Assembly: GCF_006345805.1 (NCBI RefSeq)
Contig: NC_043006.1
Location: forward strand, 104,346,001 to 104,410,000
Length of the DNA: 64,000 nucleotides
Direction of reading: 5' to 3'
From: Octopus sinensis
Taxonomy: Eukaryota
Shown: one piece after another, positions 7,693 through 60,560 of the stretch
How positions within the stretch are numbered: position 1 is the first letter of the stretch
Layout of the letters: each line of letters opens with the position of its first letter
Position numbers and translations under genes: made by a program
Notes under the pieces: model-generated
What the model was told of the DNA's origin: nothing
Seen by the model: only the letters and a program-made list of their open reading frames with translations
Database searches by the model: none

Positions 7693-10680
<2,988 letters not shown>

Positions 10681-14406: not shown

Positions 14407-15405
14407 TGTTAATATAAAACTGTGCAATATCATCCACGAAACCCTATCCACGATATTTTAATCGTTTTTCATCCATTCACCATTACAAAGCGGCAGTTTT
14501 ACAATTTGAATGACGACGGCCATTCTTAGTTGTCTGTGGTTTCTATTATTTCACGAAATAAAATTATCCAATATCTAGATTCCCTCTTACCTTTTGGGGA
14601 TGGTTTTGTTGCGAATCTGATTGCATGTTTGTTTGTATGTGTGGGTGATTATGCATTGTTTTTGTTTACACACACACATACATAAATGTATGTGTGTGTG
14701 TATGTATGTATGTATGTATGTATGTATGTATGTATGTATGTATGTATGTATGTATGCATGCATGTATGTATGTATGTATGTATGTATGTATGCATGCATG
14801 CATGTATGTATGTATGTATTATGCATGCATGCATGTATGTATGTATGTATGTATGTATGTATAAATGTATGTGTGTGTGTGTATGTATGTATGTGTGTAT
14901 GTATGTATGTATGCATGTGTGTATGTATGTATGTATGTATGTATGTATATATGTTTGTATGTATGTATGTATGTATGTATGTATGCATGCATGCATGTAT
15001 GTATGTATGTATGTACGTATGTATGTATGTATGTATGTATGCATGCATGTATGTATGTATGTATGTATGTACGTATGTATGTATGTATGTATGTATGTAT
15101 GCATGCATGTATGTATGTATGTATGTATGTATGCATGCATGCATGTATGTATGTATGTATGCATGCATGCATGTATGTATGTATGTATGTACGTATGTAT
15201 GTATGTATGTATGTATGTATGTGTATGTATGTATGTATGTATGTATGTATGTATGCATGCATGCATGTATGTATGTATGTATGCATGCATGCATGTATGT
15301 ATGTATGCATGTATGTATGTATGTATGTATATATGTATGTGTGTGTATGTATGTATGTGTGTATGTATGTATGTATGTATGTATGTATGTATGTATGTAT
15401 GTATG

Positions 15406-15436
<31 letters not shown>

Positions 15437-16077
15437 GTATGTATGTATGTATGCATGCATGCATGTATGTATGTATGTATGCATGCATGCATGTATGTAT
15501 GTATGTATGTATGTATGTATATATGTATGTGTGTATGTATGTACGTATGTATGTATGTATGTATGTATGCATGCATGTATGTATGCATGCATGTATGTAT
15601 GTATGTATGTATGTATGTATGTATGTATGCATGCATGTATGTATGTATGCATGCATGTATGTATGTATATATGTATGCATGCATGTATGTATGCATGCAT
15701 GTATGTATGTATGTATGTATGTATGTATGTATGTATGCATGTATGTATGTATGTAGGTATGTATGTATGCATGCATGTATGTATGTATGTATGTATGTAT
15801 GTATGTGTGTATGTATGTATGTATGTGTGTATGTATGTATGTATGTATGTATGTATGTATGTATGTATGTATGTATGTATGTATGTATGTATGTGTGTAT
15901 GTATGTATGTATGTGTGTATGTATGTATGTATGTGTGTATGTATGTATGTATGTGTGTATGTATGTATGTATGTGTGCATGTATGTATGTATGTATATAT
16001 GTATGTATGTGTGTGTGTGTGTATGTATGTATGTGTGTATGTATGTATGTATGTATGTGTGTATGTATGTAAGTATG

Positions 16078-16108
<31 letters not shown>

Positions 16109-16547
16109 GTATGTATGTATGTATGCATGCATGTATGTATGTATGTATGCATGCATGCATGTATGTATGTATGTATGTATGTATGTATATATGTATGTGT
16201 GTATGTATGTATGTATGTATGTATATATGTATGTATGTATGCATGCATGTATGTATGTATGTATGTATGTATGCATGCATGTATGTATGTATGTATGTAT
16301 GTATGTATGCATGCATGTATGTATGCATGCATGCATGTATGTATGTATGCATGCATGTATGTATGTATGTATGTATGCATGCATGTATGTATGCATGCAT
16401 GTATGTATGTATGTATGTATGTATGTATGCATGCATGTATGTATGCATGCATGTATGTATGTATGTATGTATGTATGTATGTATGCATGCATGTATGTAT
16501 GCATGCATGTATGTATGTATGTATGTATGCATGCATGTATGTATGCA

Positions 16548-16835
16548 TTTCGGCTCATGATCGTAATGTTGTGAGTTCGATCCGGCGACGCGTGTGTCCT
16601 TGAGAGCAAGCACACTTTATTTCACGTTTGTATGCTCCAGTCCACTCAGCTGGCAAAAATGAGTTGTACTTGTATTTGCAAAGGGTCAGCCTGTATCTCT
16701 GTGTCCGCTGATTTTCCCCGAGAACTACGTTAAGGGTACACGTGTCTGTGGAATGCTCAGCCTTGCACGTTAATTTCACAAGCAAGCTGTTATGTTGATC
16801 GTATCAGCTGGGACCCTATCGTCGTAACCGGGAGG
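16548..16835 (+). mobile_element. 5'-clipped SINE (family C-type head and core with alternative tail) embedded in the satellite
   Basis: TTCGGCTCATGATCGTAA..GAGTTCGAT..CTCCAGTCCACTCAGCTGGCAAAAATGAG, then tail ..CCCCGAGAACTACGTTAAGGGTACAC..GTCGTAACCG. Confidence 0.85.
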
Positions 16836-17848
16836 ATGAAGAGGATGAGAGAGAGATGTATGCATGCATGTATGTAGTATGTATGCATGCATGTATGTAT
16901 GTATGTATGTATGTATGCATGTATGTATGTATGTATGTATGCATGCATGTATGTATGTATGTATGTATGTATGTATGTGTGTATGTATGTATGTATGTGT
17001 GTATGTATGTATGTATGTATGTATGTATGTATGTTTGTATGTATGTATGTATGTATGTATGCATGCATGCATGTATGTATGTATGTATGTACGTATGTAT
17101 GTATGTATGTATGTATGTATGCATGCATGTATGCATGTATGTGTGTGTGTATGTATGTATGTGTGTATGTATGTATGTATGTATGTGTGTATGTATGTAT
17201 GTATGTATGTATGTATGTTTGTATGTATGTATGTATGTATGTATGCATGCATGCATGTATGTATGTATGTATGTACGTATGTATGTATGTATGTATGTAT
17301 GGTGTATGTATGTATGTTATATGTATGTGTGTGTGTGTATGTATGTATGGTGTATGTATGTATGTATGTATGTGTGTATGTATGGTATGTATGTATGTAT
17401 GTTGTTGTATGTATGTATGTATGTATGTATGCATGCATGCATGTATGTATGTATGTATGTACGTATGTATGTAGTATGTATGTATGTATGCATGCATGTA
17501 TGTATGTATGTATGTATGTACGTATGTATGTATGTATGTATGTATGCATGCATGCATGTATGTATGTATGTATGTATGTATGTATGCATGCATGCATGTA
17601 TGTATGTATGTATGCATGCATGCATGTATGTATGTATGTATGTATGTATGTATGTATGTATGTATGTATGTGTGTATGTTTGTATGTATGTATGTATGTA
17701 TGCATGCATGCATGTATGTATGTATGTATGCAAGCATGCATGTATGTATGTATGTATGTATGTATGTATGTATATATGTATGTGTGTGTGTGTATGTATG
17801 TATGTGTGTATGTATGTATGTATGTATGTGTGTATGTATGTATGTATG

Positions 17849-17879
<31 letters not shown>

Positions 17880-20800
17880 GTATGTATGTATGTATGCATG
17901 CATGCATGTATGTATGTATGCATGCATGCATGTATGTATGTATGTATGTTGTATGTGTATGTATGTGTATGTATGTTGTGTGTATGTATGTATGTATGTA
18001 TGTATTGTATGTATGTATGCATGCATGTATGTATGTATGTATGTATGCATGCATGTTGTATGTATGTATTATGTATGTATGTATGTATGTATGTATGCAT
18101 GCATGTATGTATGCATGCATGTATGTATGTATGTATGCATGCATGTATGTATGTATGTATGTATGCATGCATGTATGTATGCATGCATGTATGTATGTAT
18201 GTATGTATGTATGTATGTATGTATGTATGTATGCATGCATGTATGTATGTATGTATGTATGTATGTATGTATGTATGTATGTATGTATGCATGCATGTAT
18301 GTATGCATGCATGTATGTATGTATGTATGTATGTATGTATGTATGTATGTATGCATGTATGTATGTATGTATGCATGCATGCATGTATGTATGTATGTAT
18401 GCATGCATGTATGTATGCATGCATGTATGTATGTATGTATGTATGTATGCATGTATGTATGTATGTATGTATGTATGCATGCATGTATGTATGTATGTAT
18501 GTATGTATGTGTGTATGTATGTATGTATGTATGTGTGTATGTATGTATGTATGTATGTATGTATGCATGTATGTATGTATGTATGTATGTATGTGTGTAT
18601 GTATGTATGTATGTGTGTATGTATGTATGTATGTGTGTATGTATGTATGTATGTGTGTATGTATGTATGTATGTGTGTATGTATGTATGTATGTATGTAT
18701 ATATGTATGTGTGTGTATGTATGTATGTGTGTATGTATGTATGTATGTATGTGTGTATGTATGTATGTATGTATGTATGTATGTATGTATGTATGTATGT
18801 ATGTATGTATGTATGTATGTATGTATGTATGTATGTATGTATGCATGCATGTATGTATGCATGCATGCATGTATGTATGTATGTATGCATGCATGTATGT
18901 ATGTATGTATGTATGTATGTATGTATGTATGATGTATGTATGTATGTTATGTATGTATGTATGCATGTATGTATGTATGTATGTATGTATGCATGCATGT
19001 ATGTATGTATGTATGTATGTATGTATGTATGTATGCATGTATGTATGTATGCATGCATGTATGTATGTATGTATGCATGTATGTATGTATGTATGTATGT
19101 ATGCATGCATGTATGTATGCATGCATGTATGTATGTATGTATGTATGTATGTATGTATGTATGTATGCATGCATGTATGTATGTATGTATGTATGTATGC
19201 ATGCATGTATGTATGCATGCATGTATGTATGTATGTATGTATGTATGTATGCATGCATGTATGTATGTATGTATGTATGTATGTATGTATGTATGCATGC
19301 ATGTATGTATGTATGTATGTATGCATGCATGTATGTATGTATGCATGTATGTATGTATGTATGTATGTATGTATGCATGCTGTATGTATGTATTGTATGT
19401 ATGCATGTATGTATGTATGTATGTATGCATGTATGTATGTATGCATGTATGTATGTATGTATGGTATGTATGTATGTATGTATGTATGCATGCATGTATG
19501 TATGTATGTATGTATGTATGCATGCATGCATGTATGTATGCATGCATGTATGTATGTATGTATGTATGTATGTATGTATGTATGCATGCATGTATGTAGG
19601 TATGTATGTATGTATGTATGTATGCATGTATGTATGTATGTATGTATGTATGTATGTATGCATGTATGTATGTATGTATGTATGTATGTATGTATGCATG
19701 CATGTATGTATGTATGTGTGTATGTATGTATGTATGTGTGTATGTATGTATGTATGTGTGTATGTATGTATGTGTGTATGTATGTATGTATGTATGTATG
19801 TGTGTATGTATGTATGTATGTATGCATGCATGTATGTATGTATGTATGTATGTGTGTATGTATGTATGTATGTGTGTATGTATGTATGTGTGTATGTATG
19901 TATGTATGTATGTATGTATGTATGTATGTATGTATGTGTGTATGTATGTATGTATGTTTGTATGTCTGTCTGTATGTATGTATGTATGTATGTACGTATG
20001 TATGTATGTATGTGTGTATGTATGTATGTATGTATGTATGTATGCATGCATGTATGTATGTATGTATGTATGCATGCATGCATGTATGTATGTATGTATG
20101 TATGTATGTATGTATGTATGTATGTGTGTATGTATGTATGTATGTGTGTATGTATGTATGTATGTATGTGTGTATGTATGTATGTATGTATGTATGTATG
20201 TATGTATGTATGTATGTATGTATGTATGTATGCATGCATGCATGTATGTATGTATGTATGTATGCATGCATGTATGTATGTATGTATGTATGTATGTATG
20301 TATGTATATATGTATGTGTGTATGTATGTATGTATGTATGTATGTATGTATGCATGCATGTATGTATGTATGTATGTATGCATGCATGTATGTATGTATT
20401 ATGTATGTATGTATGTATGCATGCATGTATGTATGTATGTATGTATGTATGTATGTATGCATGCATGTATGTATGTATGTATGTATGCATGCATGTATGT
20501 ATGCATGCATGTATGTATGTATGTATGTATGTATGTATGTATGTATGTATGTATGTATGTATGTATGTATGTATGTATGTATGTATGCATGCATGTATGT
20601 ATGTATGCATGCATGTATGTATGTATGTATGTATGTATGGTATGCATGCATGTATGTATGTATGTATGCATGCATGTATGTATGTATGTATGTATGCATG
20701 TATGTATGTATGCATGTATGTATGTATGTATGTATGTATGCATGTATGTATGCATGTATGTATGTATGTATGTATGCATGTATGTATGTATGTATGTATG

Positions 20801-21625
20801 TATGTATGTGTGTGTGTATGTATGTATGTATGTGAGTATGTATGTATGTATGTATGTATGTATGCATGTATGTATGTAGGTATGTATGTATGTATGTGTG
20901 TATGTATGTATGTATGTGTGTATGTATGTATGTATGTATGTATGTATGTATGTATGTGTTGTATGTATGTATGTATGTGTGTAGTATGTATGTATGTATG
21001 TATGTATGTGATGTATGTATGTATGTATGTGTGTATGTATGTATGTATGTATGTGTGCATGTATGTGGTATGTATGTAGTATGTATGTGTGTGTGTGTGT
21101 ATGTATGTTGTGTGTATGTATGTATGTATGTATGTATGTATGTATGTAGGTATGTATGTATGTATGTATGTATGTATGATGTATGTAGTATGTTTGTATG
21201 TATGCATGCATGTATGTATGTATGTATGCATGCATGCATGTATGTATGTATGTATGTATGTATGTATGTATATATGTATGTGGTATGTAGTATGTATGTA
21301 TGTATATATGTATGTATGTATGCATGCAGTATGTATGTATGTATGTATGTATGCATGCATGTATGTATGATGTATGTATGTATGTATGCATGCATGTATG
21401 TATGCATGCATGCATGTATGTATGTATGCATGCATGTATGTATGTATGTATGTATGCATGCATGTATGTATGCATGCATGTATGTATGTATGTATGTATG
21501 TATGTATGCATGCATGTATGTATGTATGTATGTATGGATGTATGTATGTATGTATGTATGTATGCATGCATGTAGTATGCATGCATGTAGGTATGTATGT
21601 ATGTATGCATGCATGTATGTATGCA

Positions 21626-21905
21626 TTTCGGCTCATGATGTAAGGTGTGAGTTCGATTCCCGGCGGACGCGTTGTGTCCTGAGCAGACACTTTATTTCAC
21701 GTTGTCAGTCCACCCGCTGGCAAAAATGTTTTGTACTTGTATTTCAAAGGGTCATGCCCTGTCACTCCTGTGTCACGCTGATTTTCCCCGAGAACTACGT
21801 TAAGGGTACACGTGTATGTGGAAGATCAGCCATTGCACGTTAATTTCACAAGCAAGCTGTTCCGTTGATGTATCAGCTGGGACCCTATCGTCGTAACAGG
21901 CAAGG
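21626..21905 (+). mobile_element. Second copy of the same SINE insertion (duplicated with its flanks)
   Basis: Same left junction TATGCATGCATGTATGTATGCATTTCGGCTCATGAT and same (GA)n right junction as the 16548 copy; differs mainly by 1-2 nt indels. Confidence 0.85.
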
Positions 21906-23859
21906 AAGAGAGAGAGATGTAGAGAGATGTTATGCCTGCATGTATGTATGTATGTATGCATGTGTATGTATGTATGTATGTATGTATGTATGCATGTATG
22001 TATTGTATGTATGTATGTTGCATGTATGTATGTATGTATGTTATGTATGTATGTGTGTATGATGTATGTATTATGTGTGTATGTATGTATGTATGTATGT
22101 ATGTATGTATGTATGTGGTATGTATGTATGTATGTAGTATGCATGCATGCATGTATGTATGTATGTATGTACGTATGTATGTATGTATGTATGTATGTAT
22201 GCATGCATGTATGCATGTATGTGTGTGTGTATGTATGTATAGTGTATGTATGTATGTATGTATGTATGGTGTATGTATGTATGTATGTATGTATGTATGT
22301 TGTATGTATGTATGTATGTATGTATGCATGCATGTATGTATGTATGTATGTATGTACGTATGTATGTATGTATGTATGTATGTATGTATGTATGTATGTA
22401 TATATGTATGTGTGTGGTGTATGTATGTATGTGTGTATGTATGTATGTATGTATGTGGTGTGTATGTATGTAGGTATGTATGTATGTTGTATGTATGTAG
22501 TATGTATGTATGTATGCATGCATGCATGTATGTATGTATGTATGTATGTATGTATGTATGTATGTATGTATGTATGCATGCATGTATGTATGTATGTATG
22601 TATGCTGTATGTATGTATGTATGTATGTATGCATGCATGCATGTATGTATGTATGTATGTATGTATGTATGCATGCATGCAGGATGTATGTATGTATGCA
22701 TGCATGTATGTATGTATGTATGTATGTATGTATGTATGTATGTATGTATTGTATGTGTGTATGTTTGTATGTATGTATGTATGTATGCATGCATGTATGT
22801 ATTGTATGTATGTATGCAAGCATGCATGTATGTATGTAGTATGTATGTATGTATGTATATATGTATGTGTGGTGTGTGTATGTATGTATGTATGTATGTA
22901 TGTATGTATGTATGGTGTATGTATGTATGTATGTATGTTATGTATGTATGTAGTATGTATGTATGTATGTATGTATGTATGCATGCATGATGTATGTATG
23001 TATGCATGCATGCATGTATGTATGTATGTATGTATGTATGTATGTATATATGTATGTATGTATGTAGTATGTATGTATGTATGTTTGTATGTATGTATGC
23101 ATGATGTATGTATGTATGTATGTATGTATGCATGTATGTATGTATTATGTATGTATGTATGTATGTATGTATGCATGCATGTATGTATGCATGCATGTAT
23201 GTATGTATGTATGTCATGCATGTATGTATGTATGTATGTATGTATGCATGTATGTATGCATGTATGTATGTATGTATGTGTGTATGTTATGTATGTATGT
23301 ATGTATGTATGTATGCATGCATGTATGTTATGTATGTATGTATGTATGTATGTGATGTATGTATGTATGTATGCATGCATGATGTATGCATGCATGTATG
23401 TATGTATGTATGTATGTATGTATGTTATGTATGTATGTATGTAGGTATGTATGTATGCATGCATGCATGTATGTATGTATGTATGCATGATGTATGTATG
23501 TATGTATGTAGTATGCATGTATGTATGTATGCATGTTGATGTATGTATGTATGTATGCATGCATGTATGTATGTATGTATGTATGTATGTGTGTATGTAT
23601 GTATGTATGTGGTGTGTATGTATGTATGTATGTATGTATGTATGCATGTATGTATGTGTATGTATGTATGTATGTGTGTATGTATGTATGTATGTGTGTA
23701 TGTATGTATGTATGTGTGTATGTATGTATGTATGTGTGTATGTATGTATGATGTGTGTATGTATGTATGTATGTATGTATATATGTATGTGTGTGTATGT
23801 ATGTATGTGTGTATGTATGTATGTATGTATGTGTGTTTGTATGTATGTATGTATGCATG

Positions 23860-23890
<31 letters not shown>

Positions 23891-26591
23891 GTATGTATGC
23901 ATGTATGTATGTATGTATGTATGCATGCATGTATGTATGCATGCATGCATGTATGTATGTATGCATGCATGCATGTATGTATGTATGATGTATGTATATA
24001 TGTATGTGTGTGTATGTATGTATGTATGTATGTATGTATGCATGTATGTATGTATGTATGTATGTATGCATGCATGTATGTATGTATGTATGTATGTATG
24101 ATGTATGTATGCATGTTGTATGTATGCATGCATGTATGTATGTATGTATGCATGTATGTATGTTGTATGTATGTATGCATGCATGTAGTATGCATGCATG
24201 TATGTATGTGGTATGTATGTATGTATGTATGTAGTATGCATGCATGTATGTATGTATGGTATGTATGTATGTATGTATGCATGTTGTATGTATGCATGCA
24301 TGTATGTATGTATGTATGTATGTATGTATGCATGCATGTATGTATGTATGTATGTATGTATGTATGTATGTATGCATGCATGTATGTATGTATGTATGAT
24401 GCATGCATGTTGTATGCATGCATGTATGTATGTATGTATGTATGTATGTAGCATGCATGTATGTATGTATATATGTATGCATGCATGTATGTATGTATGT
24501 ATGTATGCATGCATGTATGTATGCATGTATGTATGTATGTATGTATGTATGTATGTATGTATGTATGCATGCATGTATTGTATGTATGTATGTATGTATG
24601 CATGCATGCATGTATGTATGTATGCATGTATGTTATGTATGTATGTATGTATGTAGTATGTATGCTGCATGTATGTATGGTATGTATGTATGTATGTATG
24701 TATGCATGTATGTATGTATGTATGTATGTATGTATGTATGCATGTATGTATTAGTATGTATGTATGTATGTATGCATGATGTATGTATGTATGTGTGTAT
24801 GTATGCATGTATGTGTGTATGTATGTATGTATGGTATGTATGTATTGTATGTGTGTATTGTATGTATGTATGTATGTATGTATGTGTGTATGTATGTATG
24901 TATGTATGCATGCATGTATGTATGTATGTATGTATGTGTTGTATGTATGTATGTATGTGATGTATGTATGTATGTGGTATGTATGTATGTATGTGTGTAT
25001 GTATGTATGTATGTATGTATGTGTTGTGTATGTATGTGTGTATGTTTGTATGTCTGTCTGTATGTATGTATGTATGTATGTGTGTATGTATGTATGTATG
25101 TATGTATGTATGTTGTATGTATGTAGTATGTATGCATGCATGCATGTATGTATGTATGTATGCATGCATGCATGTATGTATGTATGTATGTATGTAGTAG
25201 TATGTATGTATGTGTGTGTGTATGTAGTATGTGTGTATGTAGTATGTATGTATGTGTGTATGTATGTATTGTATGTATGTATGTATGATGTATGTATGTA
25301 TGTATTGTATGTATGTATGTATGTATGCATGTAGGTATGTATGTAGCATGCATGTATGTATGTATGTATGTTGTTATGTATGTATGTATGTATATGATGT
25401 ATGTGTGTATGTATGTAGTATGTATGTATGTATGTATGCATGCATGTATGTATGTATGTATGTATGATGCATGTATGTATGTATTATGTATGTATGTATG
25501 TATGTATGTATGTATGTATGCATGCATGTATGTATGTATGTATGCATGCAATGTATGTATGTATGTATGTATGTATGTATGTATGTATGTCATGCATGTA
25601 TGTATGTATGTATGTATGTATGTATGGATGTATGTATGTATGCATGCATGTATGTATGTATGTAGGTATGTATGTATGCATGCATGTAGTATGTATGTAT
25701 GCATGTATTGTATGTATGTATGTATGTATGTTGTGCATGCCTGTATGTATGTATGTATGTATGTATGTATGTATGTATGTATTATGTATGCATGTATGTA
25801 TGCATGCATGTATGTATGTAGTATGTATGCATGTTGATGCATGTATGTATGTATGTATGCATGCATGTATGTATGTATGTATGTATTATGTATGTATGTG
25901 TTATGTATGTATGTATGTGAGTATGTATTATGTATGTATGTATGATGCATGTATGTATGTAGGTATGTATGTATGTATGTGTGTATGTATGTATGTATGT
26001 GTATGTATGTATATATGTATGTGTTTGTGTGTATGTATGTATGCATGTGTGTATGTATGTAGTATGTGTGTATGTATGTATGTATGTGTGTATGTATGGA
26101 TGTATGTATGTATGTATATATGTATGTGGTATGTATGTATGTGTGTATGGTGTATGTATGATGTATGTATGTATGTATGATGTATGTATGTATGTTGTTG
26201 TATGTATGTATGTATGTATGTAAGTATGTATGCATGTATGTATGTATGTATGTATGTATGTATGCATGCATGCATTATGTATGTATGTATGTATGCATGC
26301 ATGAATGTATGTATGTATGTATGTATGTATATATGTATGTATGTATGTATTGTATGTATGTATGTATGTATGTATGTATGCATGCATGTATGTATGTATG
26401 ATGTATGTATGCATGCATGTATGTATGTATGTATGTAGTTGTATGCATGCATGTATGTATGCATGCATGTATGTATGTATGTATGCATGCATGTATGTAT
26501 GTATGTATGTGTGTATGTATGTATGTATGTGTATATGTTTGTATGTATGTGTGTATGTATGTATGTGTGTATGTATGTATGTATGTATGTA

Positions 26592-26622
<31 letters not shown>

Positions 26623-28752
26623 GTATGTATGTATGTATGTATGTATGTGTGTATGTATGTATGTAAGTATGTATGTGTGTATGTATGTATGTATGTGTGT
26701 ATGTTTGTATGTATGTGTGTATGTATGTATGTGTGTATGTATGTATGATGTATGTATGTATGTATGCATGCATGTATGTATGTATGTATGTATGTATGTA
26801 TGTATGCATGTATGTATTATGTATGTATGTATGTATGTATGCATGTATGTATGTATGTATGTATGTATGTATGTATGTATGCATGCATGTATGTATGCAT
26901 GCATGTATGTATGTATGTATGTATGTATGTATGTATGTATGTATGCATGTATGTATGTATGTATGTATGTATGTATGTATGCATGCATGTATGTATGTAT
27001 GTATGTATGCATGCATGTATGTATGTATGTATGTATGCATGTATGTATGTATGCATGTATGTATGTATGTATGTATGTATGTATGTATGTATGCATGCAT
27101 GTATGTATGTATGTATGTATGTATGCATGTATGTATGTATGTATGTATGCATGCATGTATGTATGCATGTATGTATGTATGTATGTATGTATGTATGTAT
27201 GTATGTATGCATGCATGTATGTATGTATGTATGTATGTATGTATGTATGCATGCATGTATGTATGTATGTATGCATGTATGTATGTATGTATGTATGTAT
27301 GTATGTATGTATGTATGCATGCATGCATGTATGTATGTATGTATGTATGCATGTATGTATGTATGTATGTATGCATGCATGTATGTATGTATGTATGTAT
27401 GTATGTATGCATGCATGCATGTATGTATGTTATGTATGCATGCATGCATGTATGTATGTATGTATGTATGTATGTATGTATGTTATATGTATGTGTGTGT
27501 GTGTTATGTATGTATGTAGATGTATGTGTGTATATGTATGTATGTATGTATGTTGTTTGTATGTATGTATGTATGTATGTATGTGTGTATGTATGTATGT
27601 ATGTATGTATGTGTATGTGTGTATGTTGTATGTATGTGTGTATGTATGTATGTATGTATGTATGTATGTATGTATGTGTGTATGTATGTATGTATGTGTG
27701 TATGTTGTATGTATGTATGTATGTATGTATGTATATATGTATGTATATGTGTGTATGTATGTATGTATGTGTGTATGTATGTATGTATGTATGTATGTAT
27801 GTGTGTATGTATGTATGTATGTTTGTATGTCTGTCTGTATGTATGTATGTATGTATGTGATGTATGTATGTATGTATGTGTGTATGTATGTATGTATGTA
27901 TGTATGTGTGTATGTATGTATGTATGTTGTATGTCTGTCTGTATGTATGTATGTATGTATGTATGTGTGTATGTATGTATGTATGTATGTATGTGTGTAT
28001 GTATGTATGTATGTTTGTATGTATGTATGTATGTATGTATGTATGTATGTATGTATGTGTGTATGTATGTATGTATTTTTGTATGTCTGTCTGTATGTAT
28101 GTATGTATGTATGTATGTGTGTATGTATGTATGTATATATGTATGTATGTATGAGTGTGTATATGTGTGTATAAGGAATTACATTGGTGATTTTGTATTC
28201 TTTATATTGTATGCGGGTTCGCCATTGTGTGATTTGTGTGTGTGTGTCTGTTCGTCTGTGAGTGTATGTAGGTGGCATGCGTATATATATATATGTATGT
28301 ATTTATATATGCAGATAGAAATGTATATATATAAAAATGTGCATGCGTATATAAATATATATATAATATTATGCGTGTGTGAGTGTGTGTAATTATACAT
28401 ATATACACATATATAGTCATGTGAATATATATATATATACACGTGTGTGCTTGTGTGTGTGTGTGTGTGTGTGTGCGTGTGTATGCGTGCGGTAGTGTGT
28501 GTGCATATACAGATATGGTCGAACGTATGAGTTAATTATTGAGAAGTTTGCCTGGCAGCTGTCCCGAGCAGTCAGCTTAGGTCCAACTGCATGCCCACTT
28601 GGATAAGGGCCTCTGCAATACGTTTCAATCGATGAATCCTTACGAGTGAAAATAGAAACTCACAACCTGTTACATAGAATGCACCTGTAATTCGAGGATA
28701 TAGCTTTGTCACTCTTGTGTCATACTAATTCAAATGAAATAATATAAGCTAT

Positions 28753-47639: not shown

Positions 47640-47642
<3 letters not shown>

Positions 47643-47905
47643 TCTTTATTAGCCACACAGACGGGACGGATTATAAAGTAGAGTTTTTCTTTTTGGGGGA
47701 GAGAAAAAAAGGTGGGGTAGGTTTTCGATCAAAAGGGATCGTAAAAGGGAAAGAAGGAAAAAGAAAGAAAAGAAGAAAGAAAAAAGGGAAAAAAGAAAAC
47801 AAAACGATCAATAGGGATCGTGTATCAGTATCATGATGTAAAGTGTAAAGGGGGAAGAAGATAAGGTTTATCCGTGGGAAGAAAAGCCTATGGAAAAGAC
47901 CGTAG
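47640..47905 (-). mobile_element. 3' UTR fragment of the same Tx1 family as 7951-10224
   Basis: Reverse complement matches ~9950-10224 (TTTTACGATCCCTTTTGATCGAAAACC..GTGTGGCTAATAAAGAAAC); lies between (TA)n and (CA)n. Confidence 0.9.
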
Positions 47906-52795: not shown

Positions 52796-54571
52796 ATTCT
52801 ATGAAACATACGAACTTGCGGCTTTATTATTTATATTGGTTTAAGGCTGCTAGTTGCCAGAACCGTTAGCACGCTAGGCAAAACGTTTAGTGGCGTTTCT
52901 CCCGTCTACGTATTCTGAGCTCAAATTCCTCCGAGATCGACTTTACCTTCTATTCTTTCGGGTTCGATAAAATAAGTGCCAACTGAGCACAGGGGTTGAT
53001 TACATCGACTTACCCCTCCTCCGAAACTGATGGCCTTGTGCCAAAATTTGAAATCAATTTTAAATATTGATTTTAAGTTGTGGCACCAGGTCAGCAGTTT
53101 TGGGGAGGACGTAAATCGATAACAAGGACATCATTGGTAATCTTGTACTTATTTTATCAACCCCGGCGGCTGTTGAGCCTACAACCCTGTTCACATCTTT
53201 CCCGCAAATGTTGAATTACAAAGGTTCAAGAGAAACATAAACGGCATCGTTATAGTTGGTCGAAGCGAAATAACTTCATTCTAGTTAACTGTCTTTTTAA
53301 TATATTTGGGAAGATTTTTCGAAATTCGTCTGAGCGAACTTCGGGTTTACTAATCGGATATTGAGTACCAACGCGAATGTAAATTCCTTTTGGATTTAAT
53401 GAACTCTGATTGATCAATAAAGTTAGTCAAGTTTGCATAACTGCACAGTGCCTGGAAAGTATCTACCTGGACTTGTGAATCCCCTTCCTTCGTATTATAT
53501 ACATACATAGTGGCATAGTGGTTGTGTATATTCAGCTCATGAACGTAAGGTCGTGAGTTCTAATTCCGGCGGCGCGTTGCTCCAGTCCACTCAACTGGCA
53601 AAAATGAGTAGTACCTGTATTTCAAAGGACCAACTTTGTCACGTTCTATCGTGATTAATCTCCCTAGAAGTGTATGCGTGTCTGAGATATACTCAGTTAC
53701 ACGTTGCGCGCATCTTTGTCTATCGATGGAAAAACAGACTTTTATCGGAAAGCGAATCGCTTATAGTTATGTCAGTATATCCGACTGGATTCACGTGTTT
53801 TTCATGTAACTATCGGTTTGTAACTGTTCAATAATATCATTAACTGTTAATCTCACCGGTCATGAACTGTCTGTGAGAGCTATGAGGACAACCCCAAATG
53901 CTTGAAAGAAATTTAGAAAACCGATACTCTTTGCAAATGTCGACTATTTCATAAAAAGTAGCTCGTAAGTAGAACTGAAAAGGATTTGAAAATTTTAGTT
54001 AATTAGTGATAGTTTGTAGTGTCTTGTGCTACTGTAAATGTTATGATCCATTCTGTAGTTGATTTAAATAAAATTTGCGAATGAGTAAAAATAACTATTA
54101 AGTTGAACGTGATATTTAACAATACCAGGGTTAAAAGCCAGCTTTGTCGAACACCATAGATGCCCTACGGCCAGCCATTATAATTCTATGAAGCATACGA
54201 ACTTGCGGCTTTATTATTTATATTGGTTTAAGGCTGCGAGTTGCCAGAACCGTTAGCACGCTAGGCAAAACGTTTAGTGGCGTTTCTACCGTCTACGTAT
54301 TCTGAGCTCAAATTCCTCCGAGATCGACTTTACCTTCTATTCTTTCGGGTTCGATAAAATAAGTGCCAACTGAGCACAGGGGTTGATTACATCGACTTAC
54401 CCCTCCTCCGAAACTGATGGCCTTGTGCCAAAATTTGAAATCAATTTTAAATATGATTTTAAGTTGCGGCACCAGGTCAGTAGTTTTGGGGAGGACGTAA
54501 ATCGATAACAAGGACATCATTGGTAATCTTTTACTTATTCTATCAACCCCGGCGGCAGTTGAGCCTACAAC
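52796..54571 (+). repeat. Dispersed direct duplication of ~390 bp (52796-53185 / 54183-54571) containing family A SINE sequence
   Basis: Near-identical including non-SINE flank; 1.39 kb apart. Confidence 0.95.
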
Positions 54572-60180: not shown

Positions 60181-60560
60181 GGGGAGGGGACCAGCCGATG
60201 AGATCGACCCCAGTACGCAACTTAATTTATCGACCTCGAAAGGATGAAACCCATAGTCGACCTGGGCGGAATTTGAACTCAGAACGTAAAGACAGACGAA
60301 ATACCGCTAAGCCCTTCGCCCGGCGTGCTAACGTTTCTTATTTCTTTATTACCCACAAGGGGCTAAACATAGAGGGGACAAACTAGGACAGACAAACGGA
60401 TTAAGTCGATAACATCGACCCTAGTGCGTAACTTGTACTTAAGTTATCGACCCCGAAAGGATGAAAGGCAAAGTCGATCTCGGCGGAATTTGAACTCAGA
60501 ACGTAACGGCAGACGAAATACCGATAAGCAGTTCTAACGTTTCTGCCAGCTCGCCGCCTT
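60181..60560 (-). mobile_element. Nested family A SINE dimer; the upstream copy (60339-60560) carries a Tx1-like 3' tail
   Basis: Minus strand: full head and body, tail TTTGTCCCCTCTATGTTTAGCCCCTTGTGGGTAATAAAGAAATA, then immediately AGAAACGTTAGCACGCCGGG of a second copy lacking its first ~16 nt. Confidence 0.88.

Follow-up and report, generated by a model that had tools for sequence, protein, structure and literature searches.

A fixed insertion site in the A-box-like motif of an octopus SINE, shared by the SINE, a Tx1-like LINE and an ORF1-only element

In the Octopus sinensis genome, a SINE, a Tx1-like LINE and an ORF1-only element (half-LINE) insert at one and the same base of the SINE head, base 15. 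There is little doubt that this self-targeting system is real. The explanation that best covers the base-15 joint, and the LINE and half-LINE at the same base, is that the site is chosen by flanking sequence carried on the RNA, to which we assign a probability of about 0.58.

The base-15 joint in the window and in the genome

The window is the whole stretch of 64,000 nucleotides that was analysed. A SINE copy on its minus strand (60558-60339) finishes with a LINE-type tail and directly abuts a second, head-less copy, whose first letters past the joint (60338-60325, minus strand) are AGAAACGTTAGCAC. The joint lies at SINE base 15 counted from GGCGGCG (17 if two leading A's are counted), inside the A-box-like TGGC^AGAAACG. 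The features discussed here are as follows.

7954..10225, plus strand: 5'-truncated Tx1-like LINE cited in the initial annotation, a relative targeting (ATCT)n
60339..60558, minus strand: upstream SINE with LINE-type tail (head, body, tail), 5.8% from a typical copy over 103 shared bases
60538..60548, minus strand: A-box-like motif of the upstream copy, with the insertion site after its fourth base
60485..60497, minus strand: B-box-like motif of the upstream copy
60339..60382, minus strand: LINE-type tail, in which a hairpin is predicted and an AATAAA stands six bases short of the end
60325..60338, minus strand: base-15 landing site, the 14-bp duplication unit; its upstream counterpart survives at 60544-60534
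60181..60338, minus strand: downstream head-less SINE of the C-rich tail type, truncated at 60181
60295..60305 and 60512-60522, minus strand: base-48 landing site, empty here and far more used by the family

The A-box label of 60538..60548 follows what is generally known of tRNA promoters, and the SINE may resemble the Octopus OR2 / CORE SINEs. The available text of PMC4758252 names OR2. Like tRNA-derived SINEs, the family carries a tail of LINE origin, and its dispersed copies are flanked by duplications that vary from site to site; ARAGORN finds no tRNA within the window. The upstream copy carries an 11-base deletion directly past the A box. The downstream copy (60181..60338) differs from the same typical-copy reference by 11.3% over 97 bases, partly through subfamily differences, and is likely the older host. 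No outer duplication was found around the dimer at this locus. Elsewhere in the window, two near-identical old-SINE regions (52859-53165 and 54246-54551), 1,387 bases apart, represent a local tandem duplication, and a block of about 14 kb of (ATGT)n-type microsatellite with strong GC skew (about 14600-28400) is broken up at several points by a short element that recurs.

The tail followed by the base-15 site has 130 exact matches in the genome and its reversed control has none, so the joint is not a product of chance. The joint is always at SINE base 15, in agreement with the initial annotation, which had inferred a cut within the A-box region. The exact tail alone occurs 17,457 times; the tail followed by the base-48 site, searched with a pattern that was a little broader, occurs 29,479 times. 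Exact head sites at base 15 number 72,727, or 1.3e-5 per position. The first 30 tails, taken without regard to their flank, comprise 23 dispersed copies, 6 at base 48 and 1 at base 15. Base 15 is therefore a true hotspot yet a minor route for the SINE, and the proposal that a SINE variant homes mainly to base 15 is not supported. The initial annotation had named random 3' flanks of the tailed copies as a refutation, which applies in part: most unselected tails do lie at dispersed sites, but the fixed joint recurs 130 times.

The tail followed by AGA occurs 895 times genome-wide. A sample of 30 such loci reduces to 24 independent places (two arrays being entered once each), with 12 at base 15, 11 dispersed and 1 at a look-alike site; by extrapolation, base-15 joints total a few hundred. 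GGTA starts 13 of the 23 dispersed unselected flanks, as it does the base-48 joint, and in the dispersed cases read by eye the GGTA bases lie inside the duplication. Contigs bridging the base-15 and base-48 joints are present in runs from three other organism labels. When empty sites were looked for in other runs, contigs broke within the SINE and none spanned the window locus.

Elements inserted at base 15

A Tx1-like LINE of about 5.34 kb (L308), with ORF1 and ORF2, carries the SINE-type tail. All four full-length copies that have 99% or more identity to L308 start in a SINE head at base 15 and are followed by half-LINE units (all four read at the 5' joint; one array, L367/L109, followed into the SINE body). 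Thus a Tx1-like LINE with this tail does occupy the same site, as had been anticipated. Pfam assigns EN (PF03372), RT (PF00078) and zf-RVT (PF13966) domains to the L308 ORF2, and sister copies keep intact ORF2 frames of 1131 aa. A CCHC zinc knuckle motif is visible in ORF1 of the family, with a match to PF00098 (E 0.003) below the curated cut-off. Among the 120 RT homologues listed, one is 'Transposon TX1 uncharacterized 149 kDa protein', at 39% identity, and most are unnamed; a 63% homologue comes from Argonauta. The family also has the Tx1 trait of target-specific insertion with duplication, at fixed sites and with 14-18 bp duplicated. Judged from these sequences, it likely belongs to the Tx1 clade.

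The half-LINE is 1,742 bp long, without ORF2, and has a zinc-knuckle ORF1 and the same tail. It has its leader and tail in common with L308, and the two ORF1s are 36% identical over 263 aa; the element could derive from a LINE RNA that was spliced or suffered a deletion. The 61 exact tails of its youngest subfamily fall at 20 places, of which 13 end at base 15, 5 end elsewhere and 2 are unreadable (13/18 of those readable). Loci such as L065, L099, L112, L113 and L115 hold single half-LINEs between SINE head and body, with the 14-bp duplication. Other half-LINEs form arrays spaced by the 14-bp unit, and mixed arrays of LINE and half-LINE are present, bearing out the expectation of multimeric arrays. 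Half-LINEs are numerous, with 12,657 candidates, of which 150 were scored; open frames of 470-500 aa persist in many copies, which, at the sequence level, suggests selection on ORF1. A splice-donor-like AG|GTAAGT overlaps the ORF1 stop in half-LINEs (L065 end) and in the LINE (L308:5298-5310).

At the host heads, 27 of 224 SINE bases differ (16 insertions, chosen for a visible head; 5'-truncated heads inflate the figure). The LINE copies in SINE heads differ by 13-22 substitutions in ~5.35 kb (0.2-0.4%). Therefore, young elements entered aged hosts.

The window's own LINE, which the initial annotation had proposed as the partner, belongs to a family in which (ATCT)n follows 28 of 28 tails (found among 30 loci); it is therefore not the base-15 partner. 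The SINE tail matches the end of this LINE (10179-10223) at 35 of 45 bases; in a side-by-side comparison over 45 bases, it matches this LINE, the SINE-head LINE and the half-LINE equally well (33-34). Over the last 25 bases, the tail of the window SINE is identical to those of the SINE-head LINE and the half-LINE at 24 positions and to that of the window LINE at 21. The same hairpin is predicted in the tails of all three elements. Further Tx1-like tails terminate in (AT)n and (ATCA)n (window 47641-47900, minus strand; L236), so sister families use other microsatellites.

A second LINE starts at SINE base 48-63 (three loci read, 44 exact leader joints). This LINE is also Tx1-like, with an ORF1 45% identical to that of L308 over 138 aa, and is seen at L065 (on the minus strand beyond the half-LINE), L109 and L382. 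Two SINE hosts hold tenants at both base 15 and base 48. The base-48 LINE may be the main carrier of the SINE; one candidate for its 3' end was found (L031). No LINE with the L308 tail type was recognised at base 48 among the 20 viewed of 76 matches, where 19 have a SINE upstream and 1 is too short.

Of the 130 exact matches, 70 junction loci were classified, with a SINE upstream in 62 and the half-LINE upstream in 8; the tests on SINE dimers leave out these 8, one of them (L124) by hand. It is very improbable that the dimer is a single amplified composite or results from unequal recombination between SINE copies, even though near-identical units in some arrays were probably lengthened by duplication (L067, L192-L195, L207-L210). 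Both tail types occur among the downstream halves (by a rough classifier), no rare allele is held in common in 1,396 of 1,891 dimer pairs (the maximum shared is 4), and the outer duplications that flank whole dimers at 23 of 54 loci with a head, some of them by chance, all differ. Moreover, unrelated elements use the same base 15. The reading as an amplified composite is thus largely refuted, and the dimers represent independent events.

The same outer duplications would also be expected if dimers and arrays were built in one step, by a reverse transcriptase that leaves one RNA for the 3' end of another where the two match over a short AGAAA, a route that needs no genomic host. At L106, two truncated units joined at AGAAG lie within one duplication, which looks like a template jump rather than nesting. 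The age gap between the dimer halves is weak, which also fits such a jump: with subfamily columns masked, 34 versus 16 of 51 dimers differ in the direction of an older downstream half (5.0% versus 6.0%, p 0.08), which argues weakly for that half being the older. An earlier version of this test (40 versus 9 of 50, p 1.5e-5) was set aside, being biased by an A-type reference. A template jump as the general route is nevertheless improbable, since it leaves unexplained the aged, locus-specific SINE heads that precede near-identical LINE and half-LINE copies. It would still require a 3' extension of the RNA and could act alongside the targeting by carried flank that we prefer. Internal inversions, as in twin priming, are seen in SINE copies at L021 and L112.

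What sets the target

Target choice of endonuclease-bearing LINEs is generally ascribed to the endonuclease. In L350, the EN region is 99.7% identical to that of L308 (about two EN bases differ), yet the copy sits in an unrelated repeat, P, with an 18-bp duplication unrelated to the base-15 unit. On the strength of this comparison, we hold it slightly better than an even bet that pairing by RNA read-through, rather than endonuclease specificity, steers targeting.

LINE copies with EN regions 96.5-99.7% identical to that of L308 lie in the unrelated repeats P, Q and R, and relatives with 91-93% identity lie in repeats S and T. Where both ends were read, insertions in P, Q, S and T have duplications of 16-20 bp. 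The 5' leader of a LINE resembles the target of its own lineage, and among half-LINE subfamilies, too, more than one class of target is found. Where members of the base-15 lineage lie off target, their duplications start with AGA (L102, L106, L369, and L100, which lies at a look-alike site). The SINE subtype tracks the target class although the SINE encodes no protein: the ACCTAT subtype accounts for 25 of 30 unselected tails, but it is seen only once among 62 base-15 dimers and never among 11 AGA copies at dispersed sites, with search patterns that differed between the sets.

Several multicopy repeats each act as the fixed landing site of one LINE or half-LINE lineage: P at L350, L351, L357, L360, L366 and L368; S at L370-L379; T at L380, L385 and L386; X at L265-L283; and Y at L261, L266 and L270. 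The ends of repeat S look like those of a small DNA transposon. Copies of repeat P have flanks in common over >230 and >330 bases, so amplification of P might have carried its LINE along passively, and P is then weaker as an independent target. It is also conceivable that the machinery of a different LINE copy acted in trans to make the insertions.

Each element has AATAAA six bases from its end, and no poly(A) was seen where elements are inserted; the 3' ends of transcripts would accordingly fall within the flank. In contigs of presumed RNA runs, the level at which these runs were inspected, no poly(A) loose end past the tail was seen. In the mechanism that we favour, the LINE ORF2 would bind the tail hairpin and reverse-transcribe LINE, half-LINE and SINE RNAs. 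Transcription would pass the tail by 5-20 bases, with cleavage inside the duplication, given the position of AATAAA. The RNA extension would pair with nicked DNA and prime synthesis strongly enough to set the site, and a lineage would keep going back to any multicopy repeat in which it had once inserted. When a SINE enters a SINE, its 5' end would merge with the host head, restoring one intact A box and B box; in the window, the host that the tailed SINE entered was likely an older copy with the other type of tail.

The initial annotation had instead named a dedicated endonuclease as the cause. In this account, the A box is nicked by a sequence-specific EN belonging to one Tx1 subfamily, which takes SINE and half-LINE RNAs there in trans, in line with what is the standard view for Tx1 in the available text of PMC4494074. 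The SINE-head LINEs do cluster tightly and have 12 ORF2 residues to themselves, of which one (N116) is in EN and 11 are elsewhere, and the more distant target groups S and T have EN changes of their own. However, L369 lacks this EN residue (it has S116) and is still at an AGA-type site, L350 shows that near-identical ENs occur at unrelated targets, and no obvious common motif was found among the targets P, Q, R and base 15 at 96.5-99.7% EN identity. Endonuclease specificity is therefore an unlikely explanation, though less so than a template jump. Overall, the observation made in the initial annotation is confirmed and its interpretation is partly supported.

Extended beyond base 15, targeting by carried flank would make these Tx1-like LINEs RNA-programmed: the poly(A) signal at the end would leave 14-20 bases of the last site on the RNA, so that one EN serves many targets (base 15, P, Q, R and others). 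Targets would pass to the SINE and half-LINE passengers in the same manner. We put this extension forward tentatively, at somewhat less than even odds. If true, it would account for the frequent target changes among Tx1 families and for the abundance of fixed-joint SINE arrays in this genome, and would provide a naturally retargetable insertion system. Near-identical ORF2s at unrelated targets of 14-18 bp offer a direct handle on RNA-set targeting. At minimum, the SINE that travels with this LINE also provides it with a landing site that is safe and renewable.

Comparison with known systems

In the literature searched, to which Repbase and subscription papers are external, no such system was found in a cephalopod; figures S3-S5 of Kojima may list SINE-targeting Tx1 elements. 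The accessible part of PMC13282606 counts L1-Tx1 families only. The closest parallel is Tx1-Mar and SINEU of crocodilians (Kojima 2015, PMC4494074), where, as far as the available text goes, LINE and SINE both insert at one target within a Mariner DNA transposon, and specificity is suggested to gain from co-transcription with that target. As here, a Tx1-type LINE and a SINE use one target in another repeat, and tandem copies sandwich the duplication. In contrast, the target there is Mariner and the SINE head derives from U1/U2 snRNA, whereas here the passenger SINE's own head is the target, a half-LINE also takes part, and sister copies with nearly the same EN lie at unrelated targets. Kibi and Koshi, described in the same text as microsatellite-targeting Tx1 families, are like the window LINE family in (ATCT)n and unlike the base-15 system.

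For R2Ol (PMC6795142) and for SART1 and R1Bm (PMC7265360), the portions available describe target sequence at the RNA 3' end that makes priming more efficient by annealing to the nicked DNA. In those elements the site is fixed by the endonuclease, with the RNA tuning accuracy; here, the RNA extension would set the site. The hotspot for Alu self-insertion at position 133 (PMC2836564, in part) resembles base 15 in that a SINE enters its own copies at one base, in sense, with pairing between RNA end and target invoked. It differs in relying on poly(A)/linker pairing and the promiscuous L1 EN, with no LINE at that base and no heritable guide. HAL1, a non-autonomous half-L1 from mammalian L1 that codes ORF1 only (PMC5753468, in part), is matched by the element here, which also codes ORF1 only and keeps the 5' and 3' ends of its LINE. 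Unlike HAL1, the octopus element is Tx1-like, site-preferring and array-forming.
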